Shown here one piece after another: positions 1,044 to 27,171 of a stretch of 40,965 nt of DNA (the stretch's first letter is position 1; every line of letters starts with the position of its first letter). A model generated the notes under the pieces. That model ran no database searches. It was not told where the DNA came from and saw only the letters and a list, made by a program, of their open reading frames with translations. Source of the DNA: a virus. The position numbers and the translations under genes are program-made. The stretch spans positions 1-40,965 of IMG/VR virus record IMGVR_UViG_3300045988_118480. The stretch is one strand, 5' to 3'.

Positions 1044-1238
1044 ATGAAAGCCCACGCAAAAGCAATCGCGGCGCTCGAAGAAAGCGGATACAGTTTCGCC
1101 CGGCATGGAGCAAACCACGACATCTATTACAACAAAGCGCTTGGAGTGCTCATTCCGTTGAAGCGTCACGACTTCGACGAATCGGATTTAAGATACATAA
1201 AATCCGAAATTGAAAAGAACAGGCGGAGACGGGGCTAA
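1044..1238 (+). CDS. hicA: HicA-family mRNA interferase toxin (64 aa)
   Basis: Small basic protein with a YcfA/HicA-like pattern (..ARHGANHDIYY..IPLKRH..). It sits immediately upstream of a HicB-like gene, which is the usual toxin-first hicAB order. Confidence 0.75.
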   Translation: MKAHAKAIAALEESGYSFARHGANHDIYYNKALGVLIPLKRHDFDESDLRYIKSEIEKNRRRRG

Positions 1239-1277: not shown

Positions 1278-1673
1278 ATGAGATATTTATATTCCGCGGT
1301 CTTTACGCCGTCGGAGGATGAGGGCAAGGTCTATGCCCGCGTGCCCGATCTGCCCGGCTGCATAACCACCGGAAGCTCTTTGCAGGACGCTATCATCCAG
1401 ATCACTGACGCCGCTTCCGGCTGGCTGGTCGTCGCCGAGGATAATTCAATACCCATCCCGCCCGCGACCCCGCAGGCCGATATCGAGCGCGCACCCTCCG
1501 ACATCCTTTCGGTCATCTGTGTCGACACCCTTGCCTATCGCGCCAGAACCGATACGCGGTCGGTGCGCAAAAACGTATCGCTGCCCGCATGGCTGGCCAG
1601 GCTGGCCGACGCCCGCGGCGTCAACTGTTCGCAGGTCCTTCAGGAGGCTCTGATCTCCCGCTTCGACGTCTGA
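1278..1673 (+). CDS. hicB: HicB-family antitoxin with a C-terminal RHH-like DNA-binding tail (131 aa)
   Basis: The N-terminus (YSAVFTPSEDEGKVYARVPDLPGCITTGSSLQDA) is typical of HicB. The C-terminus (VSLPAWLARLADARGVNCSQVLQEALI) is RHH-like. SD aaaaggagg at 1261..1269. Confidence 0.85.
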   Translation: MRYLYSAVFTPSEDEGKVYARVPDLPGCITTGSSLQDAIIQITDAASGWLVVAEDNSIPIPPATPQADIERAPSDILSVICVDTLAYRARTDTRSVRKNVSLPAWLARLADARGVNCSQVLQEALISRFDV

Positions 1674-1727: not shown

Positions 1728-1747
1728 ATGCTCGGCGTACATCTTTT

Positions 1748-1843
1748 ATAGTAGGGCGGGGAGGTGACGCAGGTATGGACGCTTTCGGGCGGTAAATGCC
1801 GCAGTTGCTCCAGCGCGTCGCCCGTCAGGATTATTTCAGCCAT
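1748..1843 (-). pseudogene. 5' remnant (about 32 codons) of an N6/N4 DNA methyltransferase gene, truncated at the hicAB cassette
   Basis: MAEIILTGDALEQLRHLPPESVHTCVTSPPYY reads as a leader plus the (S/D)PPY motif IV of beta-class MTases. The frame then runs into the hicAB terminator and antisense hicB with no further similarity. Its ATG overlaps the C5-MTase stop by 8 nt. Confidence 0.6.
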
Positions 1844-3650
1844 TGGCGGGCGCCTCCATTCCCACAGGTTCCGGCAGGCGCCAGTCCTCTGCGCGAACTT
1901 GGAAAGCGTCGCCCAGCTGCACGGTGTCCGGGAAATTGTGCTGTGTGGTCTGTACGGCGTATTTGTCAATCTCGGTTGCATAGTAGGCGGTGATCTCCGC
2001 GCCCAGCTTGTCCAGCGCGATATGGCCGCAGCTCATACCGTCGTACATGGAAAGCACTTCCACCGGCTCCTCCGTCAGTCCGGTAAAATGGCTCATAATG
2101 TGGGCAATCACGTCCACGGTCCAGCCGTTGCCCAGCATTTTATACGCCTGGGTGTCGCTGACGGGAAAGGCGTATGTGTCCGGCACGGTCTGGAGGCGTT
2201 TACATTCCGGCACGGTCAGCTTGCGAATGATGTAAAATCCGTCTGCCAGTTTAATGGGGTATGTCTTTCCTTTGATGGTGATCTGTCCGCCGCGAACCTC
2301 GTAAACCGGCATTTGCTTTCCGTCCGCCGTTACAATTAGAACGTTATTGTGTTGCCAATCTCCGTTTGCGGTCAGTGTTGGTGCTTTTTTATATTTCACT
2401 CCACCTAAATTGAAGCCCCGTGGGCGCTGAAAAATCGCGGATTCTACAACCAACCTGCTCTGGTGCCCGGTAGCGGCCACGGCGTTACTTTTCTGGTCGT
2501 CCCGCATTTCAAAAGCGGAACCATTTTCGCGTCCACGCCACGCCATACCAGCAGGCACAGCATAAAGGCCGGTGGCCGCGCCGTCGGCCCCGCCGCCGTT
2601 CGGCCTTGCCTTCAGAGAAACGCTCTTGCCGTCGGTGCTGTAAATGCGGCGGCTTTGGCTGGTGCCCAGTTCTCCGTCCTTGTTCGGCATGGCGCCGACG
2701 CGGACGGGGACGGCAATCATATTGTCTTTCTGAACGGTTGTCAGGCAGTTGGTTTTCTGCGGTTCTTCGTTTACCTCGAAATACTGGAAATGCGGGATCG
2801 CTTCGTTGTAATCGTCGCGGTGGCCTTGCTCGTTGATCCTGCGTCCCACGACGCGCCCAGCCACAGGCACGGCATAAAGCCCGGTTTTTGCGCCCAGGCC
2901 GCCGCCATTCCCACAGAGGGTTACGCTTTTGGCGTCCAGGCTGTAAACACGGTATTGCTGGCTGTCAAAAGTCTGGTTCTTTGCGTCGTTCTCAATGGTT
3001 CCGATCCTCACCGGCTCCACCAGAACGTTATATGGGACGCCCTTGTGGGTGTTCGCCGTCACGCAGGCACTTTTTCCCTGCGTTGCGTCGTGGAAATAAT
3101 CGAAATCAAAATGGTTCCGCCCGTCCTTGGTTTCGCGCACCATATAATCCATTTCTTTTTCGGTCAGCGGCTTAATGGCAACAGGTTCCGCCGCACCATT
3201 CCGCTGGTGTCTGGAAACCATGTCGTCCGCCGTGGTCCCGCCAGTTGTGGACAGCAGGGCATACCCTTTTTCTTTCCAGCAGACACCGCTTTCCAGAATG
3301 TCGCGCAGGAGGATCCCGCGGTCCACCGGCTGCTCCACCGCCACCTGACTGTATGTGCCGTCCGGGTTCCGCCTGCCCACCCAATACAGGCGCTGGCGGT
3401 TTTGTGCGCTTACCAAGGCGCTGTTAATCAGGACAGGCTCCACGCCTAACTCCGCCGTGATCTGCGCCCGGATAGCAGGCGACATACTTTTATTGTTTTC
3501 GTACAGGAAAAAATCCGGCTGGTACTTATCCCGCGCAATACGGTAATTCAAAAACAGTTCCCAGCCTATGCCGCTGGCTTCGGTTTCGCGGTTCTTTGTC
3601 TGTGCGATACTCCAGCGTGTGCAGGGGCTTCCGCCTATAAGTATTTTCAT
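1836..3650 (-). CDS. DNA (cytosine-5) methyltransferase with an apparently circularly permuted motif order and a long multi-module target-recognition region (604 aa)
   Basis: Motif order along the protein: IV (GGSPCTRWS), VI (LYENN), VIII (SAQNRQRLYW), a variable region of about 330 aa, IX/X (RLQTVPDTY...GNGWTVDVI), then I/II (LSMYDGMSCGHIAL...YATEIDKYA..QLGDA) at the C-terminus. SD aaggag precedes ATG 3650. Confidence 0.85.
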   Translation of the reverse strand: MKILIGGSPCTRWSIAQTKNRETEASGIGWELFLNYRIARDKYQPDFFLYENNKSMSPAIRAQITAELGVEPVLINSALVSAQNRQRLYWVGRRNPDGTYSQVAVEQPVDRGILLRDILESGVCWKEKGYALLSTTGGTTADDMVSRHQRNGAAEPVAIKPLTEKEMDYMVRETKDGRNHFDFDYFHDATQGKSACVTANTHKGVPYNVLVEPVRIGTIENDAKNQTFDSQQYRVYSLDAKSVTLCGNGGGLGAKTGLYAVPVAGRVVGRRINEQGHRDDYNEAIPHFQYFEVNEEPQKTNCLTTVQKDNMIAVPVRVGAMPNKDGELGTSQSRRIYSTDGKSVSLKARPNGGGADGAATGLYAVPAGMAWRGRENGSAFEMRDDQKSNAVAATGHQSRLVVESAIFQRPRGFNLGGVKYKKAPTLTANGDWQHNNVLIVTADGKQMPVYEVRGGQITIKGKTYPIKLADGFYIIRKLTVPECKRLQTVPDTYAFPVSDTQAYKMLGNGWTVDVIAHIMSHFTGLTEEPVEVLSMYDGMSCGHIALDKLGAEITAYYATEIDKYAVQTTQHNFPDTVQLGDAFQVRAEDWRLPEPVGMEAPANG

Positions 3651-3664
3651 GTTTCTCCTTTTTT

Positions 3665-3760
3665 CCGGCGCTCTGCCGGGAGGGCGCATGCCCACGCCCC
3701 CCGGCGGTTTAAGGTAATGGAGGAAAAAAGCTGGGCGTCATCCGCCCGGCAGAGCGCCGG
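3665..3760. repeat. 16-bp perfect inverted repeat (3665..3680 and 3745..3760) bracketing the 64-bp spacer upstream of the C5-MTase gene
   Basis: ccggcgctctgccggg and cccggcagagcgccgg. The inner arm ends 4 nt before the MTase SD. Confidence 0.5.
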
Positions 3761-3905
3761 TTATAGATCAAAACGGCAGGTCGCCGTCCTCAAAATCGGT
3801 CTCGGCAAAGCCGGACAAGGGGTCGGTTATGTCGTCCAGCTTCGGCCACGATCTCGACCGCCTTACGTTTATTGTCATTACGGTCGGTCCTCTGGCGGAT
3901 CGTCA
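3759..3905 (-). pseudogene. Duplicated, internally deleted 3' fragment of the ssb gene
   Basis: Near-identical to 4626..4837, with two mismatches in the first ~80 bp. A ~70-80-bp linker segment is missing, so the acidic DLPF tail is out of frame. The remnant frame reads TDRNDNKRKAVEIVAE. Confidence 0.75.
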
Positions 3906-3910
3906 CATGG

Positions 3911-4507
3911 TCATTCATGTCCTTCCACCGCTTCGCCGCCGTCGGATTCCAGAATGATTCCAGATTCCGTGAAGAAAGCCGGCCGGACGCCGAGGTTGCC
4001 GTCGCACGCGTAGGCGTTGTACAGACTGCCGACCGTGCTGACAAGGCGCGCGTGGCGCGCGTGGCCGGCGTACGGGGTGACAAGCCACCACCAGTCGTCC
4101 AGGGACAGAAGGGCCTTGTGCTTCAGGAACAGGGCTTCGGGAAGAAGGCTGATCTTCGCCTTCATGTTGCCATAGCCGAAGCCGCCGCGATGGTCAGCCA
4201 GGGACCAGTCCGCGGTCACGATGTTCGCGGAACGGATCGGACCGCCGGCGGCGTCGAAGGCCGCCAGGAAGGGGCCGTTCAGTTCGTCCTTCAGGTAGGA
4301 CAGACTGAAGTCGTTCGGGTAAGGGGTAGGGGCTTCCTCCGGACGGGTCTTCATGGGTTCCAGGGAGAAGGGGCGCCACGCGACCGCCTGGTCGGCGATC
4401 AGAAGGGTCGTTCCGTTGGTCATGTGATCCAGGACGCGGACGTCGATCGGGCCGGCGTCAAAGACGGCCCCAGGGGTCAGGTCCTTCAAAGTCTTAATAT
4501 TTGCCAT
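3911..4507 (-). CDS. Hypothetical protein, DUF6273-like (WWWLVTP...GVRPAFF motifs), 198 aa
   Basis: SD aaggagga precedes ATG 4507. The motif resemblance is from memory only. Confidence 0.7.
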   Translation of the reverse strand: MANIKTLKDLTPGAVFDAGPIDVRVLDHMTNGTTLLIADQAVAWRPFSLEPMKTRPEEAPTPYPNDFSLSYLKDELNGPFLAAFDAAGGPIRSANIVTADWSLADHRGGFGYGNMKAKISLLPEALFLKHKALLSLDDWWWLVTPYAGHARHARLVSTVGSLYNAYACDGNLGVRPAFFTESGIILESDGGEAVEGHE

Positions 4508-4634: not shown

Positions 4635-5081
4635 TCAAAACGGCAGGTCGCCGTCCTCAAAATCGGTCTCGGCAAAGTCGGACAAGGGGTCGGTTATATC
4701 GTCCAGCTCAGCGGCGATATCTCGCCCGGCGGGTCTCCCGCTTCCGGCGCTGCCTCTATCACGCTTTGGCTCGGCGAAAAATACCTCTTCGGCCACGACC
4801 TCGACCGCCTTACGCTTATTGTCATTGCGGTCGGTCCACATGCGGGTCTGTATCCGCCCCGAGAGGGCGACCAGCTGACCCTTATTAAAATACTTGCAGA
4901 CAAACTCGGCCGTCTTGCCCCATGCGACGATGTCGATAAAATCGGTCTCGGGCTGTTCGCCGGCCCGCGCGTAGGATCGGGCGACGGCCAGCGCGAAGCT
5001 GCATACCGACGTGCCGCCCTGGGTCTGCTTCAGCTCGGGCGCCGCCGTCAGGCGACCCATGAGCACGGTCTTATTGAGCAT
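4635..5081 (-). CDS. ssb: Single-stranded DNA-binding protein (148 aa)
   Basis: MLNKTVLMGRLTAAPELK... is an OB-fold pattern, and the protein ends in an acidic tail FEDGDLPF. SD gagggagga. Confidence 0.95.
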   Translation of the reverse strand: MLNKTVLMGRLTAAPELKQTQGGTSVCSFALAVARSYARAGEQPETDFIDIVAWGKTAEFVCKYFNKGQLVALSGRIQTRMWTDRNDNKRKAVEVVAEEVFFAEPKRDRGSAGSGRPAGRDIAAELDDITDPLSDFAETDFEDGDLPF

Positions 5082-5083
5082 CC

Positions 5084-5635
5084 TTACATCCTCCCTCTGT
5101 TTTCCGGCGCTGCCGGCATCGGCATCCAATGGGTGACGATCCACTCGGAGGGATCGCGCTTGCCGGTCAGCTGCCATCCGGCGTATGACGTCCACCATCC
5201 AGTGGACACTACCCCGGCGTCGCGCCGGTTGCTGTATGCGTATATCAGGACATCCTCATCCTCCGGCGGGGAGGTATGTACGCTTGTCCACTCGGCCGTC
5301 CCCGCGGACTGTAGCCGGGCGATCTGCTTGTGGGCGTCAATGAGATCCTCGTTGATGGATATGAGCATATCCCGGGCGTCATATTTGAGGTCTTTAGCGC
5401 AATTCCGGCTTTTGCCAAAATATGCACATTTTTGACAATCGCCCTCATCGCCGCTATGCGTGCATCGCCACAGGCTGTCGACGATCCTATCAAACACGCT
5501 GCCGCCTATCGGCTCAAGCCCGAAGAGGCTGCGATCCTTAAAATGCTCGCATACGCCGTCCATAGCGGCGTCGGTATCGACCTTATGGGCGCACACCTCG
5601 TAATGTACGCAGTCCCTGCACATCTTCGTCAGCAT
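5084..5635 (-). CDS. Cys-rich protein with a C-terminal DUF551-like domain (183 aa)
   Basis: The C-terminus (EWTSV..PPEDEDVLIY....WIVTHWMPMPAAPE) resembles DUF551. ATG 5635 follows SD ggagga. The track start at 5641 is TTG. Confidence 0.7.
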   Translation of the reverse strand: MLTKMCRDCVHYEVCAHKVDTDAAMDGVCEHFKDRSLFGLEPIGGSVFDRIVDSLWRCTHSGDEGDCQKCAYFGKSRNCAKDLKYDARDMLISINEDLIDAHKQIARLQSAGTAEWTSVHTSPPEDEDVLIYAYSNRRDAGVVSTGWWTSYAGWQLTGKRDPSEWIVTHWMPMPAAPENRGRM

Positions 5636-7593: not shown

Positions 7594-7806
7594 TCACTGT
7601 CCCTCCATCCACCGGATAAAGGCCAGCCGGGGGAACCGTACCTGGTGGCCATAGACCATGTAGGGGAAGGGAAGCAGCTCCGGCCGTTCCCGCGCCATAA
7701 GGCGCAGCGCGTGCGGGTCGATCTCCACGACCTGTGACACGACGTCGGCGGTCAGCATCTCCCTGTCCATCGCGCGGACGTCATCAAGACTGAGTTTCTT
7801 TTTCAT
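7594..7806 (-). CDS. Excisionase/MerR-type HTH protein (70 aa)
   Basis: MKKKLSLDDVRAMDREMLTADVVSQVV..D...LRLMARE..LPFP....G..VRFPRLAFIRWM. SD aaggaggga. Confidence 0.6.
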   Translation of the reverse strand: MKKKLSLDDVRAMDREMLTADVVSQVVEIDPHALRLMARERPELLPFPYMVYGHQVRFPRLAFIRWMEGQ

Positions 7807-8257
7807 CTTTCGCTCCCTCCTTTTTGGCATTGTAGATTACAAGCATAGATGGAAATGGTGCCCCGTCGGCGCTATTTCCATTTTCATCTTCAAAATGTAT
7901 TCGCCCTCGTAGAAACCGGATGTCCGCTTTGCCATAAATATAGTCGTGGAAATATGCCGTATCGGTTCGGGCCGGAATTAACAAAACTATAGGGAATCCC
8001 CCCCTTGCCTCATCAAAGGCCTTTTTTACCCATTTCCCAATTTCGCGGCCGTAAGGGGGATTGCAAAATACGGCGCCGCCTTTATCCCAGCTTTGAGCCA
8101 GACCGTCCGTTTCTGGGGTGTAGTACAAAGGACATTTTGCTGTCTCTTCTGTTGCTGCCGGGTCTAAGGCGAAATTAAACTCGGCATTGAGTTTGTCAAA
8201 AAAGTCCTGTGGCGTACACCAACACATATTTTTAGAGGATAACAGCGTCTTGTTCAT
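7784..8257 (-). CDS. Phage Dam-type N6-adenine DNA methyltransferase (157 aa)
   Basis: WCTPQDFFDKLNAEFNFALDPAA...FCNPPYGREIGKWVKK...LIPARTDTAYF...FLRGRIHF matches the T1/phage Dam family (PF05869-like). Confidence 0.85.
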   Translation of the reverse strand: MNKTLLSSKNMCWCTPQDFFDKLNAEFNFALDPAATEETAKCPLYYTPETDGLAQSWDKGGAVFCNPPYGREIGKWVKKAFDEARGGFPIVLLIPARTDTAYFHDYIYGKADIRFLRGRIHFEDENGNSADGAPFPSMLVIYNAKKEGAKDEKETQS

Positions 8258-8450
8258 CTTCCGCCCCTTCCTCCGAAAGTGTCCGCACGATTGCCGCGAC
8301 CTGTTCAAAGTCCAAATAGATGGGCTTGTTCTCTGTGATCCCCTTGATGTCATATCCGACGACATTCCCGAGGCCGTCCCGTTTTAGCGTGAATTCTGTG
8401 CATTTGACATCAAATACGACGCCGCTTTTAAGGACTATCCTTATCGTCAT
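8232..8450 (-). CDS. Hypothetical protein (72 aa)
   Basis: SD aaaggag sits 7 nt before ATG 8450. Confidence 0.55.
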   Translation of the reverse strand: MTIRIVLKSGVVFDVKCTEFTLKRDGLGNVVGYDIKGITENKPIYLDFEQVAAIVRTLSEEGAEDEQDAVIL

Positions 8451-16741: not shown

Positions 16742-17050
16742 TTATATTTGGCTTTGGATTTTTGCGAGAGCGCTCTTATAACGCCGTCGCGCCGTTCGCT
16801 CGGATATGCGCAGGTCGTCACCGATCTCGCAAAAGGTCTTGCGGGACGACATTTTTGCTTTGACGACCTGGATCTCTTCGGCGTCAAGCAATGTGCCGTC
16901 GAGGATATCTTGCAGGTCGGCGGCGCCGGTCACTTTGGCCAGTTGGTGTTTTGTCGCTATGTGCTGGGATCGCGGATGATTGCGTTGGTACTCTTGATGC
17001 AGCAGCTCCATAAGCAGCCTGCATAGGGTTGTGCTATCCATCCCACCCAT
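16742..17050 (-). CDS. Small sigma70-region-4 / LuxR-type HTH protein (102 aa)
   Basis: LDAEEIQVVKAKMSSRKTFCEIGDDLRISERTARRRYKSALAKI. Confidence 0.65.
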   Translation of the reverse strand: MGGMDSTTLCRLLMELLHQEYQRNHPRSQHIATKHQLAKVTGAADLQDILDGTLLDAEEIQVVKAKMSSRKTFCEIGDDLRISERTARRRYKSALAKIQSQI

Positions 17051-17053
17051 AGA

Positions 17054-17815
17054 CTACTCCAACTTTTCCAGCGCGCGGACTATCATGGCCATTACCTCTT
17101 CGCGCGTTGTCAGCGCGCGTGGGCTGCTGCCGTCGGTGACGCCGTAGGCCTGTGCCTTGCCGATGACATCCTGATGCTCGGCCCACGCGCTGGCCGGCAG
17201 TTTGGCCCGCCGGGCAAGGTAATTATCCATCAGCTTATCAAACTGATCCTGTGTCATGTCTGCCTCCTCAAAAATGTGATATCTGGGGCTGCGCGACCGG
17301 CAGTCGTTGTCAAGCCACTCGGGCAACACATAGATATTCTCACCTATGACCGTGACCCGGCCCTTGCGGCCGGGCTTATCGTATTTGCCGTCATAATAGC
17401 CGGGGTCATGGACCCTCAGCTTGCCCGCCGTTATGCCGCGGACGACGACATAATGTCCGCCGGTCGAAAAGAGGCCGGTATACCCGGCGCGGTCGCCGCC
17501 GACGTTGGCTATCACCCACGCGCCATCCCTGAGGGCCGATACCATATCATCGAGGCTTGATGTCGTGCGGTATTTAATGCCGTAATCCCGAGAGACGACG
17601 CGGCCAAGGACGGCCATATCGGTGCCGGTCGACACCCTCGCGCCCCGATCTATGGCATATGCCGCCATGGCCTTCGGCCCATGCCGCCCGCCGGTCAGTC
17701 CCTCGACGACCATCGACATGCAGCAGACCCCGCAGCCGGAGGTCTTGACGGTCGCGTTGGGGTGGGCGGCATGAGGATAGGGGACGGCGGCGTATCTGTT
17801 CTGGTTATAATACAT
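17054..17815 (-). CDS. Endolysin: papain-fold (C39-like) cysteine peptidase domain plus an SLH-like C-terminal repeat (253 aa)
   Basis: TSGCGVCCMSMVV...GGHYVVVRGI...VHDP. C-terminus ASAWAEHQDVIGKAQAYGVTDGSSPRALTTREEVMAMIVRAL. It is adjacent to the holin. Confidence 0.8.
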   Translation of the reverse strand: MYYNQNRYAAVPYPHAAHPNATVKTSGCGVCCMSMVVEGLTGGRHGPKAMAAYAIDRGARVSTGTDMAVLGRVVSRDYGIKYRTTSSLDDMVSALRDGAWVIANVGGDRAGYTGLFSTGGHYVVVRGITAGKLRVHDPGYYDGKYDKPGRKGRVTVIGENIYVLPEWLDNDCRSRSPRYHIFEEADMTQDQFDKLMDNYLARRAKLPASAWAEHQDVIGKAQAYGVTDGSSPRALTTREEVMAMIVRALEKLE

Positions 17816-18108
17816 TATTCCGTTTTATTGGACTGTTTGATGAGCTGGTCGACATAGACGCTGGCCCCGGCGCAGAGCGCGCCCTGGGTGACGGCGGTGA
17901 AGCACACCATAAGGCCGTCCTGCCACGATGTCAGCTGCGCCCCGGCAAGCACATACACGACGGCCAGCAGCACGCCGCAGGCCCCCAGCAGCAGCGGGAT
18001 ATACTTGTCACTTACCGTCTGGGACTTTTTGAGGGCGCAGCCCAGCAGATAGAGCACCGGCACAAGCACAAGCAGCTCGGGCCGGACGAAATCCATAATA
18101 TAATCCAT
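17815..18108 (-). CDS. Holin (Clostridia phage holin family, Hol44-like; 97 aa)
   Basis: MDFVRPELLVLVPVLYLLGCALKKS...DKYIPLLLGACGVLLAVVYVL...GASVYVDQLIKQ. Three hydrophobic segments. Confidence 0.8.
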   Translation of the reverse strand: MDYIMDFVRPELLVLVPVLYLLGCALKKSQTVSDKYIPLLLGACGVLLAVVYVLAGAQLTSWQDGLMVCFTAVTQGALCAGASVYVDQLIKQSNKTE

Positions 18109-18118
18109 GTTGTCCTCC

Positions 18119-18346
18119 TTAGTGGTTCCGGGCCTCGTCCTCGAGGTCGGCTATACGATGGTTGATGACCTTGATCTGTTCTTCGACGACCGGCATGCGG
18201 CGGGCAAAGTTATTGTGTTCGCGCACCTCGCGGGTCAGCTCGTCAAGGCGGGTCTCTGTGACGGCGGCATGCTTGCTATTGGCGATAATGACGCCGACAA
18301 GGGTTATCCCGCTCGATATGACAGCCGTGATGATGCTCTCCATCAT
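18119..18346 (-). CDS. Small membrane protein with a coiled coil (BhlA/UviB-like architecture; 75 aa)
   Basis: N-terminal TM segment IITAVISSGITLVGVIIA followed by a heptad-like helix. Located in the lysis cassette. Confidence 0.6.
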   Translation of the reverse strand: MMESIITAVISSGITLVGVIIANSKHAAVTETRLDELTREVREHNNFARRMPVVEEQIKVINHRIADLEDEARNH

Positions 18347-19320
18347 TTTGCCTCCTTGAGGCTGTCATACAGCCGGACCATGATGCTTGCGGCCTGCTGC
18401 CTCGTCAGCGGGGCGGTCGGGTCAAAAAGATCGTCGTGCCCCGACATGAGCCCCAGCTCGCGGGCGCGGTATACGTCGGCCTTATGTGCCGGGTTGATGC
18501 TGCTGTCGTCCTTATACTTGTATGTCTCCATACGCACATACCTTTCTATCTCTATTTCTTCGGGCGGCGGGAGGATAGGCAGCCCCCAGCCCATGCGGGC
18601 GTCCTTGACACCCGGCTCATTGATCGGCCGGGCGCAGTCGCGCAGCAGCCTATACATCATATCATGGTCGAGGGGACGGCCGGTCCGGGCTATGGCAAGG
18701 TCATTGACCAGGGCGGCCATACCGCAGATGACCGGGCATGCACAGGACGTGCCGTTAAATATCCGGCCAGGCTCGCCGACATATATGTCGGTCACTCCGG
18801 CAAAGTCGACGTGATCGCTTGCCGAGGTATAACCCGCTTCGACTGGGGTTATTTCCGCTCCGGGGACGGGCACGCCGCCCCGGCTCTCGCTTGCAATCAG
18901 CCGGACAGCGCCGACGCCATAGACCCGCTCGGCCGCCATCATGGGATTATTCCGGTCGGCGCTGTGGTTCCCGGCCGAGACAAAGAGGGTGCAATAAGCC
19001 GGGAGCTTGCCGTCGATCTCTTTGCGCCATGCGCCGTTGCCACCATACCATGATATGGAGGCGTACATGCTGTCGGCATCAAGGCTCTCGATCAGACCAA
19101 CAAGACCGTCGACGTCGCCGCCTGTCAGGTCGCCGTATACGACCCGGCGGCCGGGCGCGATCTCATGCAGCACGGCAAGGGTTTTCCGGGCGTGAGATTC
19201 CTTCCCCGCGCCCTCGATCTCTTCGGCTGTCAGTGTGCAGCCCCGGGCGCCGGTATACCCGGCGTCGTGCCATGCCGTCACGCCGAGGTAATCGCGTATC
19301 CAGTCATTTTTACTGTCCAT
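18343..19320 (-). CDS. Subtilisin-like (S8) peptidase-family protein with a C-terminal SLH-like repeat (325 aa)
   Basis: GTSCACPVICGMAALV (Ser motif) and SAGNHS (Asn motif). The expected Asp-box region is atypical. C-terminus NPAHKADVYRARELGLMSGHDDLFDPTAPLTRQQAASIMVRL. Confidence 0.7.
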   Translation of the reverse strand: MDSKNDWIRDYLGVTAWHDAGYTGARGCTLTAEEIEGAGKESHARKTLAVLHEIAPGRRVVYGDLTGGDVDGLVGLIESLDADSMYASISWYGGNGAWRKEIDGKLPAYCTLFVSAGNHSADRNNPMMAAERVYGVGAVRLIASESRGGVPVPGAEITPVEAGYTSASDHVDFAGVTDIYVGEPGRIFNGTSCACPVICGMAALVNDLAIARTGRPLDHDMMYRLLRDCARPINEPGVKDARMGWGLPILPPPEEIEIERYVRMETYKYKDDSSINPAHKADVYRARELGLMSGHDDLFDPTAPLTRQQAASIMVRLYDSLKEAK

Positions 19321-19465
19321 CTGTCCCCTCCAGCATTGCCGTCAGGCTGTTGTACTCTTCGACCGTCAGGCGGTCGTTGGCAAGATAGGCGTCCATCTTG
19401 TCGATCAGGCCATCCGTGCGGCCGCGGGCTATAAGCAGCTTACAGAGATCATATACACTCTTCAT
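19310..19465 (-). CDS. XkdX-like small protein (51 aa; not in the ORF track)
   Basis: My manual translation gives MKSVYDLCKLLIARGRTDGLIDKMDAYLANDRLTVEEYNSLTAMLEGTDGQ. It is ATGA-coupled to the upstream gene and overlaps the next start by 11 nt. Confidence 0.5.
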   Translation of the reverse strand: MKSVYDLCKLLIARGRTDGLIDKMDAYLANDRLTVEEYNSLTAMLEGTDGQ

Positions 19466-19680
19466 TTCGTCGTTTCACCCCCGTTCAGTTCGGACATGCA
19501 GAGCCGGTATTCGTGGTCGGCCAGCAGGTCGAGGATAACGTCGGTCTCGGAGGGTGGCAAATATTTGTCTCCTATCTTGGCCCCGTCGTACCACTCTTTT
19601 GCGCTTATCTTTTCGGCGATGTCTGGCTCTGCCTCGATTATATTGGTTATCACCTTGTCTGTGACTATAAGATATCTCAT
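19462..19680 (-). CDS. Hypothetical protein (72 aa), tail-fibre-adjacent
   Basis: SD aaggggg precedes ATG 19680. Confidence 0.6.
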   Translation of the reverse strand: MRYLIVTDKVITNIIEAEPDIAEKISAKEWYDGAKIGDKYLPPSETDVILDLLADHEYRLCMSELNGGETTK

Positions 19681-19696
19681 GATGTAGCCCCCTTGC

Positions 19697-20794
19697 TTAG
19701 TGGTATATCCTCATCCCGATGTAGCCGCTTTTACCCGCAGGACCATACCCAGAGGCTTGCTCGTCCTCGCCCATGTACGGTATTGAGCCTCCTCCACCGC
19801 TGCCGCCACCCGGTTTTGTTGCGCTCTCTCCATTCTCCGCTCCACCTCCACCGGCACCTCCACCGCCAGCTCCGCCAGCTCCGCCGCTCTTCCTGTTCCC
19901 ATATGCACCACCGCCGCCTGCTCCGCCAAAAAGTTCTGTTTCTGTAAATGATATAAACGCCGGGAATCCATCTTCGCCTGCGATACCGTTAGCGGTTGAT
20001 GTCCTATATCCGCCCCCCTTTGCTTGCTGGCCGCTCGCCGATGTTTTCCCAAAAGCTTCTGTATCGCCGCCAACTCCACCATTTCTGGTGCCACCCGCTC
20101 CAATTTGGGCGGTGTACTCTACATTTGCGCTAAAGTCCACATTTTCAAACGTTGCGACTTTTCCGCCGTCGCCGCCTGCACCGGAATGGCCTGTTGCGCT
20201 ACCGGAATATACCGTTCCCGGGTTTCCTCCATTCCCTCCGCCGACAAGCGATACGTCAACCCTTGTAGCAAGTGGTGACATAAGGACTGTTGCGGTCGTC
20301 TCAAAAGCCACAAAATCAATCAGCGTGCCGATAAGAGTAACAGCGGTGAATTTGCCTGCCGGTGTCGTGATGGTCTGCGATGGTATATTTATGTCTGTGT
20401 ACGGTTTTGCGGCAGCGATGGTCGTTTGTTCGGCGGCCGCAACACCAAACGCCGTACCGGTTGCGTCGGTTTTTGCTATGCCGCCGCTTACGGTTGTGAT
20501 ACCGGTTATTTCCACATCGGGTATCGGCGCTCCACCCTCTGTTTTAACTGTTACGGTTACGTACCGATTAGCCCCAATAAGCAGCTTGTTTATCAGCCGG
20601 AGCGTATCATTGACTGTGGCGTCGCCGGTCAGGCCATAGAGGGCGGCTGTGTCGTCGTTCAGCAGGGTGGCCTTGCTTAATGGCGTACCCTGTTCGGTCG
20701 CTTCGTCGGCGCGGACCATGTCGTATACGCTGGGCTGACCATCGACGGCAGTCAGCTTAACTCTGCCCGGATAGAGCGGTATTCTGTCTTTCAT
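19697..20794 (-). CDS. Tail fibre / receptor-binding protein with a glycine-rich C-terminal domain (365 aa)
   Basis: The N-terminus MKDRIPLYPGRVKLT...GTPLSKATLLNDDTAA is typical of Firmicutes phage fibres. The C-terminus carries GGGNGG/GAGGGG tracts. Confidence 0.75.
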   Translation of the reverse strand: MKDRIPLYPGRVKLTAVDGQPSVYDMVRADEATEQGTPLSKATLLNDDTAALYGLTGDATVNDTLRLINKLLIGANRYVTVTVKTEGGAPIPDVEITGITTVSGGIAKTDATGTAFGVAAAEQTTIAAAKPYTDINIPSQTITTPAGKFTAVTLIGTLIDFVAFETTATVLMSPLATRVDVSLVGGGNGGNPGTVYSGSATGHSGAGGDGGKVATFENVDFSANVEYTAQIGAGGTRNGGVGGDTEAFGKTSASGQQAKGGGYRTSTANGIAGEDGFPAFISFTETELFGGAGGGGAYGNRKSGGAGGAGGGGAGGGGAENGESATKPGGGSGGGGSIPYMGEDEQASGYGPAGKSGYIGMRIYH

Positions 20795-20797
20795 GTT

Positions 20798-21301
20798 TTA
20801 TCCTCCTATTTCCCCGGAATATATCTCGCCGCTGTAATACAATCCCTGTGATATGAGGGTCAGCAGGGCGTCGACATCAAGCAATATCTGCTCTATGTTG
20901 TTGGCCTCGACATAGGTCAAGCCGTCCATGCTGCCGGGCGCGGGCGGGGTCGAGGGCTTCACGGCCAGCGCCGCCCGAATGGCGGCTATATCTTGGCGAT
21001 AGCTCTCCATCTGCCCGGCCGTCGGGTCGTCGTCCTCGAGCCAGTCGTCCTTGGGCGCGACGGCGACCTTATAGCCGTGCTCATACAGCCGCCCGGTGAC
21101 ATACCGGACGGCCGCGCCGACCCGGTTGAGGTCGCTTGCGTTATATGCCCCCTTGAGGTCGAGTGCCCATTCGGTCTTTTCGGCGTCGGTCATCGTGCCA
21201 GATTGCCACTTGCGCAGCAGCACCCGGACGCGGTCGACATCGGCCCGTGTGCGGTCGGTTATGAGGTGCAGCTCAATGCTCCCGCGGCTGTTATTTGACA
21301 T
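20798..21301 (-). CDS. Tail-associated protein (167 aa)
   Basis: TDRTRADVDRV...KGAYNASDLNRV pattern. ATG 21301 overlaps the upstream stop as TGATG. The track start is TTG. Confidence 0.65.
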   Translation of the reverse strand: MSNNSRGSIELHLITDRTRADVDRVRVLLRKWQSGTMTDAEKTEWALDLKGAYNASDLNRVGAAVRYVTGRLYEHGYKVAVAPKDDWLEDDDPTAGQMESYRQDIAAIRAALAVKPSTPPAPGSMDGLTYVEANNIEQILLDVDALLTLISQGLYYSGEIYSGEIGG

Positions 21302-22758
21302 CAAATCCCCCTGCTTTTAATTTCTGCTGCCAATGTGTTAGACAGTTTGATGGACAACTGCTCAACATGCCCGACGGTCTGTGTGCCCCATCCGTCGGGG
21401 ACGGAAAGATACGCGCCCGGCTGCTCGCCCTGCCATACGATCTTACTGCTCGCCGTCTTGCGCCGGGCGTAATAGTCATATACGCGCTGCGCCACGGCCT
21501 GGCCGACAGCAGGGGAGACAAGGGTCGCGTCGGTGATCTGCACCACATTGGCTTTGGTGTTGGCCGTCACATTGGGATTGGTGACGGTGTAGACCGTCGT
21601 CGTGTCCTTATACTTTTGGCCGCCGACCTCGATGTCGCCCGATGCATCGGCTGTGTACTGATGTGCCGTAACCTGCACCGATGTCGTTATCGCCGCCGTC
21701 TCGACGGTCGGTCCGGTATATGTCCGGCCTGTGCCGACGTCGGTCAGCTCTGTTCCCGGGGAGTATATATGCACCCCGGTCACGCCGGTTGTCGACGCAC
21801 ACACGCCCCAGACAAACAACAGCTGCTGCAAGGCGTCGCGCCGCGTACCCTCGGGGATATATCCCGTGACCTGTGTGTCGGCGGCGTCGATGGTGAGGTC
21901 AAATGCCCCGCCGATGATCTCGGCCGCGAGTGCCTTTGCCGACTTATCGGTATACATGCCTCCGGCAAACACATCATCGTCGAGCACGCCTATCGCGTCC
22001 TGGCACTCGATCTGATATGTGTTAGCGCCCTGGCGTTTGGCCTTGTCGATGTAGTACACACCTATCAGCTTTCCGGCGCTAATCGCTTCTACCGGCTGTT
22101 TGAGCTGGAACATATAATCTATGTCTTTGCGGCTCTCTAACGTCCACTTGAGCGCCCCTGCGGGCAACTCTGTGCCTATAAGGCTTGTCTCTGCCGTTAT
22201 CTCTGCGTCGCGCAGCTCATCCATGCCAAACTCTCGGACTATGCCGATCAGTATGCTGTTGATCCTTGCGCGGCGCCCGGGGACGCTGGTCTTATTGAGG
22301 GTCAGCACGATTTTATCAAATGCCTCGACTGCCTGCTGACAAAAAAATGTCGCGTCGTTTGGCTCAAAGACGGCCTCGGCCTTGAGTGTCTCGCCTTGAT
22401 ACCACTGCACGGTCACGCTACTGCACCGCTCGTCCGTCGCCGCGTCCGACGTCAGAGTTATCCCGACGGACGAAAACTGTCGGCTGAAGGTAAGGGTAAT
22501 GACCGGCGGGGTCGCAAATACTCCGGTGCTCTTGTCGCTGACGACCGTCGACCAAAAGGCTATCTCTTGCTCATCGTGGACCTCAAAGGATCCATCCAAC
22601 ACCCAGCGGTTATGTTCCAGCGTTGCGACCGCCGGAGTTCCCGCCCCGAAGGGCAGGAGGGCGAGGTCGGAAAACTCTTCGGCCGACGTCGCCTCCGGGG
22701 TGGCGGCTTCCGCCGCCCCGGGTGCTATGTCCTTGTATATGATTTTGGTCTTACTCAT
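21301..22758 (-). CDS. Tail tip / baseplate protein (Dit/Tal-position; 485 aa)
   Basis: Assigned by its position two genes after the tape measure and by size. No catalytic motif recognised. Confidence 0.7.
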   Translation of the reverse strand: MSKTKIIYKDIAPGAAEAATPEATSAEEFSDLALLPFGAGTPAVATLEHNRWVLDGSFEVHDEQEIAFWSTVVSDKSTGVFATPPVITLTFSRQFSSVGITLTSDAATDERCSSVTVQWYQGETLKAEAVFEPNDATFFCQQAVEAFDKIVLTLNKTSVPGRRARINSILIGIVREFGMDELRDAEITAETSLIGTELPAGALKWTLESRKDIDYMFQLKQPVEAISAGKLIGVYYIDKAKRQGANTYQIECQDAIGVLDDDVFAGGMYTDKSAKALAAEIIGGAFDLTIDAADTQVTGYIPEGTRRDALQQLLFVWGVCASTTGVTGVHIYSPGTELTDVGTGRTYTGPTVETAAITTSVQVTAHQYTADASGDIEVGGQKYKDTTTVYTVTNPNVTANTKANVVQITDATLVSPAVGQAVAQRVYDYYARRKTASSKIVWQGEQPGAYLSVPDGWGTQTVGHVEQLSIKLSNTLAAEIKSRGI

Positions 22759-23153
22759 GGCCGTACCTGCGCGTCCATCGGGATAAAGTTGACCGATATC
22801 TCATCCCATCGGTTGACGCCGTCGGCGGCCATGCCCTCTTTAAGCTTGCGGCTGCCGGATGTGTAGTAAGCCTCGTATGATAAGGTGCTCTGCCCATCGG
22901 CCGCCTCGAGTTGTACGCTGTCGTCGACCGAATGGGCTATGAGATAGTCCCACAGAGCGTCAAAATCGCTCTGGCTTTTGCCGTTAAAAAATGTGACCTT
23001 ATGGCCGATGTATGTGCCGATGATATCGCGCACCATCCGGCCGGAGAGCACGCGCCCGACGTTATCGCCGTCGAGCACGGAAAAGCTCTCTTCGATGTTG
23101 CTTATAGCGACGTCGACGTCAAAGGATCTTCCGTTGATTTTTATGTAATTCAC
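22755..23153 (-). CDS. Tail component (132 aa; GTG start)
   Basis: SD aaggagg sits 6 nt before GTG 23153. The gene is directly downstream of the tape measure. Confidence 0.65.
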   Translation of the reverse strand: MNYIKINGRSFDVDVAISNIEESFSVLDGDNVGRVLSGRMVRDIIGTYIGHKVTFFNGKSQSDFDALWDYLIAHSVDDSVQLEAADGQSTLSYEAYYTSGSRKLKEGMAADGVNRWDEISVNFIPMDAQVRP

Positions 23154-23165
23154 CGGCCGCCTCCT

Positions 23166-25139
23166 TTACGCCTTTACAAGGGATTTGCCATGCCGCTTCG
23201 ACACCTTTTTCTGGTTGCGGTATATGACCTCTCCGTCGAGTTCCAGTACGTTGTTTATGACCATCTCGCCGCTTCCGCCGCCGTCCATCTCCTCGCGGAT
23301 GAGCTGCCGGAGCTTTGCGTCGGGTACCTCATAGTTTGTGCCCTGCTTTTGGTCGCCGAGCACGGCCAGAAACTCGCGGTTAGGCGGGATGACCGCGCCC
23401 TGAGCAAGGCGGGGGAGGCTTGCCTCGGCCATATGGCTTATTTTTGGTCCCCACGATTTACCGCCGATACCCGGGACCCACTCGGGGACCTCAATTTTGA
23501 TTTTGTTGATCTGGTCTATGACCCAGTTGACCCCGCGGATAATAAGGTTCAAAAAGCTCTCTATTATGATGAGGTCCATGTTAATCCATGATTTAATCAT
23601 CTTTTTTAAGCCGGCACCGGCTCGGTCCATGTCGCCCGTAAACACTCCTTCGACAAAATCCACAAGCCCACTCAAAAAGTTTTTTATCTGGTCGATAAAC
23701 TCTTTGAGGTTGCCAGTCCATGCCAGGACTGCCACAACGATAGAGGCAAATGCTGCTATAAGCAACGGGACCCAGCTTTTTGTAAGCAGGCTTATCCCCA
23801 GACCACCGGTCAGCAATCCGGCGATCAATGTCAGTACATTTTTGAGATTAACTCCATTTTTGGATATATCCTCAAAAGCCGCTACCAACAGCGCCGCAGA
23901 GGATATGATAAGGCCTATTCCGGCGCCGATTTTGCCAAAGGCAAGAGCCAAACCACCTGTGACAGCCGCCGCCCCTGCGATAAGCTCGGTCATGTTGCCC
24001 CAATTAAGGCCGTTTTCCATTACGTCGGAAAGAGCATCCCACATTAGTTTCAGGCCGCCCACGGCAATTAAAAGACCCGCGATCTTTGTCGCAATGCCCT
24101 GGAGCTGTGACGGGAGTTTGTCCGACAGTTTCCACAAGGCAAGGCCCGCACCGATAAACAGTATTGCGTCTGCGATATCGTTAAGCCGGTCTGATACACC
24201 GTCCAAAAAGCTAAAATCCGGGGTGATGTCCGTAGCCGCTCCACCGCTTCCGCCGCTGCTGTCATCGCCCTTGTTGCTTGAGAGCTGATTGATCTCGTCA
24301 AAAGCCGCCAGCGACTTTCCGGCCTCTTTTGCGGCTTTTCCGGTCCCTTTGAGCGCTGCCTTTTGCTTGTTTAGTGCTTTGGCGGCGTCTGTAGTGGATT
24401 TAAGGGATTTGCCGGATATTGCCGCTATGAGCTGCGCTATCCTGCTTATTACCGCCGTCAATACATTAACCAGCACGATAAATGCGGGTATGATGACATT
24501 AACCAATGGCTGGGCCAGCGTAAGGAGCGCGCCCTGCAACTGCGCCATAGCGGCTCGGGCTCCGTCGTTTGTTTTTATGGTCTCCATCATCCACGACCGG
24601 AGTGACCGCAGTCCCGCGCTTATGATGTTAAAGATAAAGGCTCTTACGGCCAGCTTTTTTATCCGGTCCCCGAGCTTGTCGGCAAACCTTTCCGCCTGAT
24701 CCATTGCCGCCGCCATTTTCCCGGCCGCGGTCTGGCTATATGCGATTCTCGCAGCGTAGGCGCCTGCCTGTTCTTCCGCCTCGCCAATGTTTTTTGTTAT
24801 GCTCGCAATGTCGACATCTATATTTTTTGCTCGCGTTTCGAGGTTTTCCCATCTCTGGGCAAGCGTCTCACTCTGTTTTTCAAGTCGCTCATAGTCTTTA
24901 CTGTTGACAAAGTCAGGGCCTCTTTGTGCGGACATCTCGCGTATTTTGGCATTTACTTCGTCGAGCTTTCTTGCGGCGTCGTCCATTTGCGCCTCGATGT
25001 TTGACTTTGTGTTTTGCTTTTTTTCGAGCGCCTCATTTAGCTTTTTGATCTGCTTTTCCAGCTTATCAAGCTCTTTTTGCGCATCTTTCTCGTCGATATC
25101 CACGCCAATAACAACGGCGCCATCGGCTTCATCGGCCAT
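23166..25139 (-). CDS. Tape measure protein (657 aa)
   Basis: An N-terminal coiled coil, a long hydrophobic Gly/Ala/Leu-rich centre, and a position after the chaperone genes. Confidence 0.9.
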   Translation of the reverse strand: MADEADGAVVIGVDIDEKDAQKELDKLEKQIKKLNEALEKKQNTKSNIEAQMDDAARKLDEVNAKIREMSAQRGPDFVNSKDYERLEKQSETLAQRWENLETRAKNIDVDIASITKNIGEAEEQAGAYAARIAYSQTAAGKMAAAMDQAERFADKLGDRIKKLAVRAFIFNIISAGLRSLRSWMMETIKTNDGARAAMAQLQGALLTLAQPLVNVIIPAFIVLVNVLTAVISRIAQLIAAISGKSLKSTTDAAKALNKQKAALKGTGKAAKEAGKSLAAFDEINQLSSNKGDDSSGGSGGAATDITPDFSFLDGVSDRLNDIADAILFIGAGLALWKLSDKLPSQLQGIATKIAGLLIAVGGLKLMWDALSDVMENGLNWGNMTELIAGAAAVTGGLALAFGKIGAGIGLIISSAALLVAAFEDISKNGVNLKNVLTLIAGLLTGGLGISLLTKSWVPLLIAAFASIVVAVLAWTGNLKEFIDQIKNFLSGLVDFVEGVFTGDMDRAGAGLKKMIKSWINMDLIIIESFLNLIIRGVNWVIDQINKIKIEVPEWVPGIGGKSWGPKISHMAEASLPRLAQGAVIPPNREFLAVLGDQKQGTNYEVPDAKLRQLIREEMDGGGSGEMVINNVLELDGEVIYRNQKKVSKRHGKSLVKA

Positions 25140-25155
25140 CTGTTATTTCACCACC

Positions 25156-25707
25156 TTATATCCACTTGCTTATAATCTCTTCTTCGGCGGCGCTATACTT
25201 GTTTTTGATATCTATCGCCGCTTTATTCTGACGATAAAAAGTCTTATCGTCTTTTTGTGTGAGCTTGCCGTTGGCTTTGAGTTTGCGGATACGCACTATC
25301 TGGGCAAAATAGCAATCGCCTATTTCTTGGAAATAGGACAAGAATGTCCACCAATGCACATAATCCACGGCGCGGATATCCTGTCCCGCGATCCTGTTGA
25401 CCGGCGCGATGATATATCTATAATCCTGCTCCCAGTCCATAAGCTGCGGCTTGCGTTTTTCGGGCTCCGTATACTCTTCTTCTCCATTGATAAACGCAAA
25501 ACACTTTTTAAGTGCCGCTTCGAGGTGTGCCTCTGGTATTTGATCAAAGGTCGGATAAAAGATATACAGGATAACAAGTGCCTTTTTCTGACCCGTAAGG
25601 TCCTTGTCATTCATGGCCTCGAAGATATCAAGGATCACCCGATAATCGGTCTCTATAGGGTACTCGACCCCTTCGATGGTCACCGTTTTCGGCAGGCCGT
25701 ATCTCAT
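25156..25707 (-). CDS. Phage Gp15-family protein (tail assembly; 183 aa)
   Basis: LPKTVTIEGVEYPIETDYRVILDIFEA.. pattern. Located immediately upstream of the tape measure. Confidence 0.7.
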   Translation of the reverse strand: MRYGLPKTVTIEGVEYPIETDYRVILDIFEAMNDKDLTGQKKALVILYIFYPTFDQIPEAHLEAALKKCFAFINGEEEYTEPEKRKPQLMDWEQDYRYIIAPVNRIAGQDIRAVDYVHWWTFLSYFQEIGDCYFAQIVRIRKLKANGKLTQKDDKTFYRQNKAAIDIKNKYSAAEEEIISKWI

Positions 25708-26126: not shown

Positions 26127-26145
26127 GGTTTGCTCTCCTTTCGTC

Positions 26146-26171
26146 AAAGGGCGGGTTTTTGCCCGCCCTTT
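26146..26171 (-). terminator. Hairpin after the major tail gene (possible attenuating terminator)
   Basis: aaagggcggg-N6-cccgcccttt. Confidence 0.45.
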
Positions 26172-26172
26172 G

Positions 26173-26703: not shown

Positions 26704-26706
26704 TTT

Positions 26707-27159: not shown

Positions 27160-27171
27160 GGGCTTTATCCT

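Follow-up and report, generated by a model that had tools for sequence, protein, structure and literature searches.

Can a C5-cytosine DNA methyltransferase whose chain begins at the catalytic motif IV and ends with the cofactor-binding motifs I-III be a natural, working enzyme, and how could such an order arise? The question is raised by a gene on the minus strand (1836-3650) of a phage contig, IMG/VR virus record IMGVR_UViG_3300045988_118480, analyzed here over its whole length of 40,965 nucleotides (the window). Its open reading frame (ORF) runs from an ATG at 3650-3648 to a stop codon at 1838-1836, and its 604 codons encode a complete, circularly permuted C5-cytosine methyltransferase of 604 amino acids (aa), as seen from the translation, the match to Pfam PF00145 (DNA_methylase) and alignments to PDB chains. 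The presence of a permuted C5 methyltransferase, described earlier in a first-pass annotation of the sequence, is confirmed, and the interpretation given there is supported. Here it is proposed that the gene quite probably encodes a functional orphan, phage-borne C5 methyltransferase having a single permuted catalytic domain and exchangeable target recognition domain (TRD) cassettes. The ATG is preceded, at a distance of 4 bases, by a Shine-Dalgarno-like AGGAG (3655-3659, minus strand) read directly from the sequence, in agreement with the first-pass annotation, and the relatives share the N-terminus M-x-(K/R)-(I/L)-L-(I/L)-GGSPC. A longer in-frame GTG start at 3695, adding 15 residues, was rejected since the extension is absent from homologues.

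The protein matches PF00145 with 104.2 bits (E=1.2e-29; the cut-off is 22 bits) in three separate stretches, and it matches this family only, not the amino-methyltransferase family PF01555. Using phmmer against PDB chains, residues 3-92 aligned to DNMT3A 86-180 (motifs IV-VIII), residues 443-519 to M.HhaI 235-315, residues 498-520 to DNMT3A 264-286 (motif X), and residues 520-571 to DNMT3A 7-60 (motifs I-II), with residues 494-582 being colinear with plant DRM2 (motif X then I-III). These alignments and the motif positions give the order IV-V-VI-VII-VIII, TRD array, IX-X, I-II-III, the permuted order already proposed for this protein, and not the canonical linear order I to X. The residues typical of C5 methyltransferases are all present. 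These include PC (9-10), the ENV-type Glu in ENN (51-53), QxRxR as QNRQR (83-87), RLQTVPD (485-491), the motif X GNGW (507-510) and the S-adenosylmethionine (AdoMet) motifs I-III, which are YDGMSCG (536-542), a DNMT3-like variant of FxGxG, ATEID (558-562), and QLGDA (578-582, with GD at 580-581).

Along the minus strand, the catalytic subdomain (residues 1-120; 3291-3650) contains motif IV GGSPC, with PC at 3621-3626, motif VI ENN at 3492-3500 and motif VIII QNRQR at 3390-3404, and is delimited by the DNMT3A 86-180 alignment, conservation, low ratios of nonsynonymous to synonymous substitution rates (dN/dS) and a predicted local distance difference test (pLDDT) of 80-97 in an AlphaFold2 model of the window protein made with a 25-sequence alignment. 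After the TRD array, a conserved pre-IX segment with motifs IX-X (residues 442-521; 2088-2327), which carries RLQTVPD at 2178-2198 and GNGW at 2121-2132, is supported by the M.HhaI 235-315 and DNMT3A 264-286 alignments and a pLDDT of 74-95, the same range that the model gives for residues 481-590 as a whole. The linker between the old C-terminus, after motif X, and the old N-terminus (residues 522-531, FTGLTEEPVE; 2058-2087) leads to the relocated AdoMet-binding subdomain (residues 532-590; 1881-2057), with motif I at 2025-2045, motif II at 1965-1979 and motif III at 1905-1919, which rests on the DNMT3A 7-60 and DRM2 alignments, its low dN/dS and a pLDDT of 88-95.

The break point was located by comparison with the nearest canonical relative, P0218, which runs through the III/IV region uninterrupted (...LGDAYGVDGWNIGPVDLLLGGSPC..., within the longer stretch ...LGDAYGVDGWNIGPVDLLLGGSPCTHWS...), whereas the window protein ends in ...LGDAFQVRAEDWRLPEPVGMEAPANG and starts with MKILIGGSPC (longer stretch MKILIGGSPCTRWS). 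The cut therefore sits in the loop between the post-motif-III helix and strand beta-4, matching the III/IV boundary named in the first-pass annotation, and relative to P0218 nothing is lost and nothing is doubled at it. A short C-terminal tail (residues 591-604; 1839-1880, minus strand) ends where the canonical motif IV would start. In tblastn searches with the three core segments, no second I-III module or other methyltransferase piece was found elsewhere in the window, so the C-terminal I-III is the sole cofactor-binding module available.

A search of REBASE for motif X before motif I returned 27 enzymes, all variable-region permutants (M.BssHII, M.Alw26I, M2.Eco31I, M.Esp3I, M2.BsaI and others), and the engineered internal permutation types were stated to be seemingly not natural (Albert et al. 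2018, PMC5944983). The review of Woodcock et al. (2020, PMC7544214) gives one alternative permutation of the 5-methylcytosine (5mC) motif order and defines the beta class as motif IV, TRD, motif I, and only the m5C topologies C (canonical) and F (M2.Eco31I type) were recognized among about 175,000 REBASE sequences (Samokhina and Alexeevski, bioRxiv 10.1101/2023.12.13.571470, December 2025). Like the window protein, the M.BssHII group (Type H, zeta class, topology F) has motif X joined to motif I, presumably via duplication and truncation; however, its N-terminus lies in the variable region, giving (TRD)-IX-X-I-VIII with both structural domains intact, and the window protein is instead cut inside the large catalytic domain (beta-3/beta-4) with the TRD array internal. 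Plant DRM, among the best structural matches, is also a natural C5 enzyme with X directly followed by I-II-III, but it is eukaryotic, with UBA domains and a single TRD, and DRM2 is colinear with the window protein over X-I-II-III only. The DRM break is said to have been placed by Cao and colleagues in 2000 between V and VI, giving VI-X then I-V, whereas the window protein keeps IV-V joined to VI. By its sequence, the window protein is in neither of these known rearranged groups, and the different break points previously claimed for M.BssHII (PMC5944983) and DRM hold.

The same break region is known from laboratory permutants. Engineered M.HaeIII, M.MpeI and M.SssI starting between II/III or III/IV (Types B, C) are active (PMC5944983), so the permuted topology is compatible with catalysis; these are artificial, and the window protein is natural and widespread. 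Albert et al. suspected a compromised Km for AdoMet in such permutants. The linear block order of the beta-class N6A/N4C enzymes M.PvuII, M.RsrI and CcrM (IV, TRD, I) is identical to that of the window protein, which is nevertheless no member of that class; those enzymes have a different chemistry, a motif IV of (D/S)PPY and not PC, and no homology to it at the family level (PF01555 in place of PF00145). A full-text search found no paper describing a C5 enzyme with beta-class order, a result that covers the literature searched and does not prove that none has been published. The permuted order appears to be a topology absent from the 2018, 2020 and 2025 classifications, in which the natural prokaryotic C5 permutants are all of the variable-region kind; here it is natural and widespread in prophages of gut Clostridia that are abundant in humans and animals. 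In what has been a textbook family of fixed motif order, this clade would fill a topology declared absent in nature.

The spread of this order was followed in a search covering 5.8 billion proteins and an added profile search, the relatives being labeled P0001 and so on. More than 100 clusters at 75-92% identity aligned colinearly with 98-100% of the query, the permuted order is shared by more than 180 close homologues of independent assemblies, and the window protein itself is on record for this contig (P0001). Order was classed by three segments, A (residues 1-100 or 1-125, IV-VIII), B (466-521, IX-X) and C (527-585, I-III). In 230 retrieved proteins, A starts among the first ten residues, B and C follow in this order, and little of the chain is left after C (236 permuted proteins with a less strict filter). 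Among the 50%-identity cluster representatives, the best 150 of 8,857 hits included 54 full-length permuted proteins starting at motif IV, 34 canonical ones and 2 tandem fusions, the remainder being mostly fragments. In GTDB, taken as one genome per species, 486 stretches encode a relative, and the best 79 of these loci comprised 68 permuted, 2 canonical, and 2 with two permuted genes in tandem. The hosts are mostly Oscillospiraceae (Oscillibacter, Dysosmobacter, Flavonifractor, Pseudoflavonifractor, Colidextribacter), with Lachnospiraceae, Acutalibacter, Ruminococcus and Robinsoniella in addition, and cultured isolates with the permuted gene include Oscillibacter sp. 1-3, Flavonifractor sp. 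An92, Acutalibacter caecimuris M00118 and Robinsoniella peoriensis CCUG 48729. A family member is also carried by the isolate Colidextribacter sp. OB.20. Phage nd4 (OR777945) also has a permuted member, at 46% identity and annotated as 'hypothetical protein'; other public names of member sequences are generic, such as 'site-specific DNA-cytosine methylase'. In some prophages, tandem permuted genes have near-identical cores and different TRD arrays (L067 2293-5064; locus L017).

The same subfamily includes canonical enzymes, such as the Dmt of Bacteroides phage BK687P2, the methylase of Vibrio phage 1.242.O and P0218, with DNMT3 and M.HhaI more distantly related. These are alike in PF00145, the ten motifs, the key residues, the signatures LS(L/M)(F/Y)DG(M/I)SCG, ENN/ENV, SAQNRQRLYW and GNGWTV, the types of TRD module and the phage or prophage setting, but they run I-III, IV-VIII, TRD, IX-X where the window protein runs IV-VIII, TRD, IX-X, I-III. 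Some relatives of both orders have inteins inside motif IV, between the Pro and the catalytic Cys (GGSP|CFVAGT...VHN|CTYWS), made of Hint and intein-splicing domains, some with a LAGLIDADG endonuclease; the carriers are P0140, P0152, P0160, P0176 and P0187 with canonical order and P0151, P0153 and P0234 with permuted order. In the intein-bearing permuted enzymes, the N-extein has just 10 residues (MKRILIGGSP).

Between motifs VIII and IX, the variable region appears to hold six or seven TRD-like modules, a higher number than the three to four first counted. A Smith-Waterman self-alignment of this region paired residues 180-322 with 287-410 at a score of 121, compared to 39 or less in 20 shuffles; it was used, with this control, in place of a blastp self-comparison that gave no matches. 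Residues 121-441 were cut into seven segments, T0-T6, at recurrent (A/V/E)(E/V)P(V/I) joints or degenerate forms of them, the end joints of T5 and T6 being degenerate, and a K-x-x-x-(L/V)-(T/C/S) type element is present in six of the seven segments.

The first segment, T0 (residues 121-156; 3183-3290, minus strand as for all the modules; SGVCWKEKGYALLSTTGG...AAEP), is a putative module delimited by its AEP joint and can be compared with the DKALTVTTRIGG segment in the enzyme of Vibrio phage 1.242.O. T1 (residues 157-213; 3012-3182; ...GRNHFDFDYF...GKSACVTANTHKG...LVEP) is part of the internal repeat; its residues 182-205 are missing from 48 of 187 close relatives, and P0081 does not have the GKSACVTANTHKG-containing segment, from the end of T1 to the start of T2 (query residues 188-221). 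T2 (residues 214-262; 2865-3011; VRIGT...YRVYSLDAKSVTLCGNGGGLGAKTGLYAVP) is of the M.HhaI type, matching M.HhaI 225-267 by BLASTP (E=5e-6), and is a paralogue of T4 (residues 316-366; 2553-2705; VRVGAM...RRIYSTDGKSVSLKARPNGGGADGAATGLYAVP), also of M.HhaI type, which forms an internal repeat with it and has a partial BLASTP match to the M.HhaI TRD (E=0.02). Between these two lies T3 (residues 263-315; 2706-2864; VAGRVVGRRINEQGHRDDYN...QKTNCLTTVQKDNMIAVP). T5 (residues 367-403; 2442-2552; AGMAWRGRENGSAFEMRDDQKSNAVAATGHQSRLVVE) is exchanged for other sequence in P0084, P0003 and P0004, and T6 (residues 404-441; 2328-2441; SAIFQRPRGFNLGGVKYKKAPTLTANGDWQHNNVLIVT) is a rare extra cassette, missing as a clean block from 166 of the 187 close relatives, present in P0002 and found in another position in P0234. 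When searched together with motifs IX-X, the TRD of a relative aligned to M.HhaI 216-314 (E=2e-12); phmmer of the TRD region alone matched no methyltransferase in the PDB.

Whole-module gains are also seen, including an extra 44-residue module after residue 263 in 58 of the 187 relatives, a different 53-residue module at the same place in about 16, and a doubled T3+T4 in P0003 and P0004. Most of the relatives showing whole-module indels or duplications are 66-92% identical. The internal repeats, this cassette turnover in close relatives and the two modules resembling the M.HhaI TRD support the tandem-TRD reading of the first-pass annotation, and the comparative evidence suggests that the TRDs behave as independent cassettes. 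In the permuted representatives, the stretch between the residues 1-125 block and the IX-X block mostly has 52-339 residues (only 5 in P0267). Long TRD arrays are not linked to the permutation, since those of the canonical sister enzymes are as long or longer, which makes the multi-TRD architecture a trait of the whole subfamily and not a result of the permutation. These long, fast-reshuffled arrays suggest broad-spectrum anti-restriction methyltransferases in these phages, and would bear on gut phage host range and on how 5mC motifs found in metagenomic methylomes are read; for engineering, the modules may supply exchangeable DNA-recognition units.

Several contiguous TRDs between VIII and IX are also the mark of the SPR/phi3T/SPbeta group. 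Orphan enzymes of Bacillus temperate phages have several TRDs in one polypeptide at this place and give broad protection from restriction (PMC12707154). Those enzymes (SPR, phi3T, rho11s, H2, SPbeta) have the canonical motif order, unlike the window protein, and three to five known specificities in comparison to the six or seven modules here, where the hosts are gut Clostridia.

How many of the modules are active is a separate matter, and it is conceivable, though somewhat unlikely, that the enzyme is permuted and active but effectively mono- or oligospecific, most modules being pseudo-TRDs or structural spacers. Pseudo-TRDs were reportedly documented in the Bacillus-phage enzymes by Lange and colleagues in 1991, and the degenerate end joints of T5 and T6, the low-confidence model of the array and its dN/dS of 0.14-0.48, higher than in the core, would fit such a reading. 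However, cassettes are gained, lost and duplicated cleanly between near-identical enzymes, as expected if each adds a selectable specificity, T2 and T4 keep the HhaI-type recognition-loop pattern, and module types recur in distant, canonical enzymes (T3 in that of Vibrio phage 1.242.O; T1, T2 and T3 in the intein-bearing P0140; T5 in P0218).

The predicted fold was best seen in P0127, a minimal permuted homologue of 321 aa with one TRD, 77% identical to the window protein. Its AlphaFold2 model, with a mean pLDDT of 84.9 and a predicted template modeling score (pTM) of 0.84, is one compact domain with a single copy of each class I methyltransferase fold element, in the order beta-4 to beta-7, TRD, IX/X helices, beta-1 to beta-3, and its I-III module has a pLDDT above 90. 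Matches of the window-protein and P0127 models in Foldseek were exclusively C5 methyltransferases (DNMT3A/B/C, DRM, M.HhaI). A confident monomer model of this kind speaks against an enzyme that is active only as a domain-swapped or obligate dimer, in which I-III of one chain completes IV-X of a second, as do the ten-residue X-to-I linker, similar to the direct joining of the termini in the active engineered permutants, and the lack of any sequence feature demanding a swap. Dimerization has been proposed to be needed by the beta-class amino-methyltransferases of the same linear order (IV, TRD, I) (PMC7544214), separated C5 methyltransferase fragments can complement each other (PMC5944983), and DNMT3 and DRM, the closest relatives of solved structure, function as oligomers; even so, this alternative is considered improbable.

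Conservation and selection were compared over both halves of the permuted chain. Two alignments, of 25 and of 64 diverse permuted sequences, show E51, N52, S81-Q83, R85, R87, G507, N508, W510, D537, G538, E560 and D581 as invariant and P9 and C10 as at least 90% conserved. In comparison to seven relatives, the IV-VIII module has a dN/dS of 0.03-0.09, and the linker with the relocated I-III module one of 0.04-0.17. The permuted topology, with fixed termini, is kept to about 40% identity through dozens of 50%-identity clusters. A non-functional chimeric relic, made by a deletion across two adjacent methyltransferase genes that joined IV-X to I-III and left the product inactive, is very improbable in view of these invariant catalytic and cofactor residues, the low dN/dS of both halves, the retained topology and the confident single-domain model of P0127; moreover, in members with a motif IV intein, a 10-residue N-extein has to be joined to the remainder of the chain by splicing, which is sensible only for a working protein. 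What can be said for a relic is that tandem methyltransferase genes and fusions exist in the subfamily, that the phage has two other damaged methyltransferase genes (a truncated N6_N4 and a split ParB-methyltransferase), and that the permuted clade includes P0233 (188 aa), which is internally deleted and probably dead. An assembly or gene-calling artefact of this contig, a metagenomic one with identical 77-bp ends and the gene less than 4 kb from one of them, can be practically dismissed, as the gene is internal and lies between unrelated neighbors, a database record for this contig has the identical protein, the more than 180 relatives and the isolate genomes share the order, and nucleotide identity to another phage contig continues unbroken over the X-to-I junction (L005 6451-7034 vs window 2329-1746).

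For the functional, permuted and multi-cassette enzyme proposed here, the chain would start at strand beta-4 and the motif IV Cys and continue through V-VIII, the TRD array, IX-X and the ten-residue linker to I-III, which would pack beside the N-terminal beta-4 and so rebuild the usual seven-stranded sheet. Following the established mechanism of the family, Cys10 would attack C6 of the flipped-out cytosine, with Glu51 protonating N3; the methyl group would come from AdoMet bound to motifs I-III and X. The TRD cassettes, as suggested by the comparative data, would share one catalytic core and take turns in presenting different targets to the active site. Replicating or induced phage DNA methylated in this way at several motifs could escape several host restriction systems, an anti-restriction role like that of the multispecific Bacillus-phage enzymes.

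Several points weigh against this proposal. Catalytic activity is predicted from sequence comparison, and so are how many TRDs are active, which targets they have and the role against restriction; some modules may be inactive pseudo-TRDs as in the Bacillus phages. The NCBIfam model TIGR00675 (dcm) scores the window protein at 89.9, below its cut-off of 100.65, likely because the chain is split across the profile; annotation by motif-order rules would in such cases mis-score real enzymes. In the AlphaFold2 model of the window protein, the TRD array (122-455) has a pLDDT below 50 and the pTM is 0.49, so the models say nothing on how six or seven modules get to the active site. The packing of I-III beside beta-4 is deduced from pTM and pLDDT, and Foldseek TM values are only about 0.5 even for the confident P0127 model, since Foldseek aligns sequentially and cannot show that a permuted chain covers the whole HhaI/DNMT3 fold. 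The TRD modules have no detectable homology to Bacillus-phage TRDs by tblastn, with the low-complexity filter on, against 50,697 phage records, of which four matched, none of them from Bacillus; of the previously noted likeness to the multispecific Bacillus-phage enzymes, the architecture stands and the sequence does not. Finally, the core tree described below has no bootstrap support.

This neighbor-joining tree was made from 231 columns of the concatenated core for 104 units. Every permuted unit falls in a single clade, at the base of which lies the canonical P0218, and the canonical enzymes, the intein-bearing ones included, are the sister group, a pattern that fits a single permutation event followed by diversification to about 40% identity. 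Head-to-tail fusions of two complete canonical enzymes (I-X-I-X) were found in P0131 (962 aa) and P0259 (618 aa), and the inter-copy linker of P0131 (HFFTGLSNVK...VDVLSVFDGMSCG) resembles the X-to-I junction of the query (HFTGLTEEPVEVLSMYDGMSCG). Both fusions are placed elsewhere in the tree and were rejected as direct ancestors; they show that the intermediate needed for permutation by duplication arises naturally in this subfamily, which makes the origin by tandem duplication and truncation suggested in the first-pass annotation plausible. Most probably, a head-to-tail fusion of two canonical genes would have lost its first I-III and its last IV-X, and the permuted topology would have arisen once and then diversified in temperate phages of gut Clostridia. 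With tandem fusions in the same subfamily, this lineage offers a natural test case for the permutation-by-duplication model, and it combines the permutation with natural duplication intermediates and unusually long, fast-changing TRD arrays.

A further, rather unlikely possibility is that these proteins form a 'beta-ordered' C5 class not recognized before, hyper-multispecific in having six or more active TRDs on one permuted core, in which the permutation is of functional consequence. The consequence may be obligate dimerization or trans-completion of the cofactor half, as proposed for the beta-class amino-methyltransferases, or it may lie in about 450 bp, not about 170 bp, being conserved 3' of the TRD array, which may ease the exchange of TRD cassettes between phages. 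If such a class exists, then, together with the I-X-I-X fusions and the inteins, one living lineage would document every step of permutation by duplication.

The contig ends (1-77 and 40889-40965) are identical. This points to a circular assembly and makes the contig, of about 40.9 kb and 54% G+C, probably a complete phage genome. Its genes include those for a single-stranded DNA-binding protein (SSB, 4635-5198), HicAB, a Dam-like methyltransferase (7784-8365), portal, terminase and tail proteins. The structural gene region (17000-35500) had no megablast match among phage records, and so no sequenced phage of that collection is closely related to it. Beside the methyltransferase, where several neighboring ORFs have no recognized function, no gene for a restriction enzyme was recognized. 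Nucleotide homology of the window to L005 (5003-7034), a 43-kb phage contig, covers 3659-1746 only, at 90-94% identity, that is, the methyltransferase gene and the first 98 nucleotides of the next gene, and the flanks are unrelated; this confinement to the gene indicates a cassette-like movement of the methyltransferase among phage backbones that are otherwise unrelated. Relatives have, directly after the permuted gene and overlapping it, a gene for a 316-aa N6_N4 methyltransferase (PF01555), near MT-A70, PAPS reductase and Mom-like genes, and such modification-gene settings were seen both on phage contigs of 43 kb and, within an integrated prophage, on a bacterial contig of 420 kb.

In the window, the first ~33 codons of a beta-class N4/N6 methyltransferase gene (MAEIILTGDALEQLRHLPPESVHTCVTSPPYY; 1745-1843, minus strand) overlap the stop codon of the C5 gene (ATGGCTGA). 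The remainder of the N4/N6 gene is gone, homology ending at 1746, and in its place are hicA (1044-1238, plus strand) and hicB (1278-1673, plus strand), a toxin-antitoxin pair. In P0100 (686 aa), a permuted C5 enzyme shares one reading frame with part of the neighboring N6_N4 methyltransferase, namely its C-terminal AdoMet-binding half, which does not have its own SPPY motif; locus L025 (816-aa ORF) is possibly alike.

The spacer 5' of the methyltransferase (~3750-3910, minus strand) holds a relic second copy of the SSB C-terminal end (...DDITDPLSGFAETDFEDGDLPF*), followed by a terminator-like hairpin and T-run (3733-3747). This relic looks like the scar of a recombination inserting the ORF 3911-4507 between SSB and the methyltransferase. 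An upstream relic of a I-III module was considered and rejected, as tblastn finds none and the spacer holds the SSB relic.

Two further methyltransferase genes were found in the window. The Dam-like adenine methyltransferase (7784-8365, minus strand; phrog_111, E=4e-60) appears intact. A ParB-domain N6/N4 methyltransferase (35858-37064, minus strand) is split into the ORFs 36411-37064 and 35858-36331, with the break near the expected DPPY, and is either a frameshifted pseudogene or a sequencing error. Together with the C5 gene and the truncated N4/N6 gene, the phage has four methyltransferase genes, two of them damaged.

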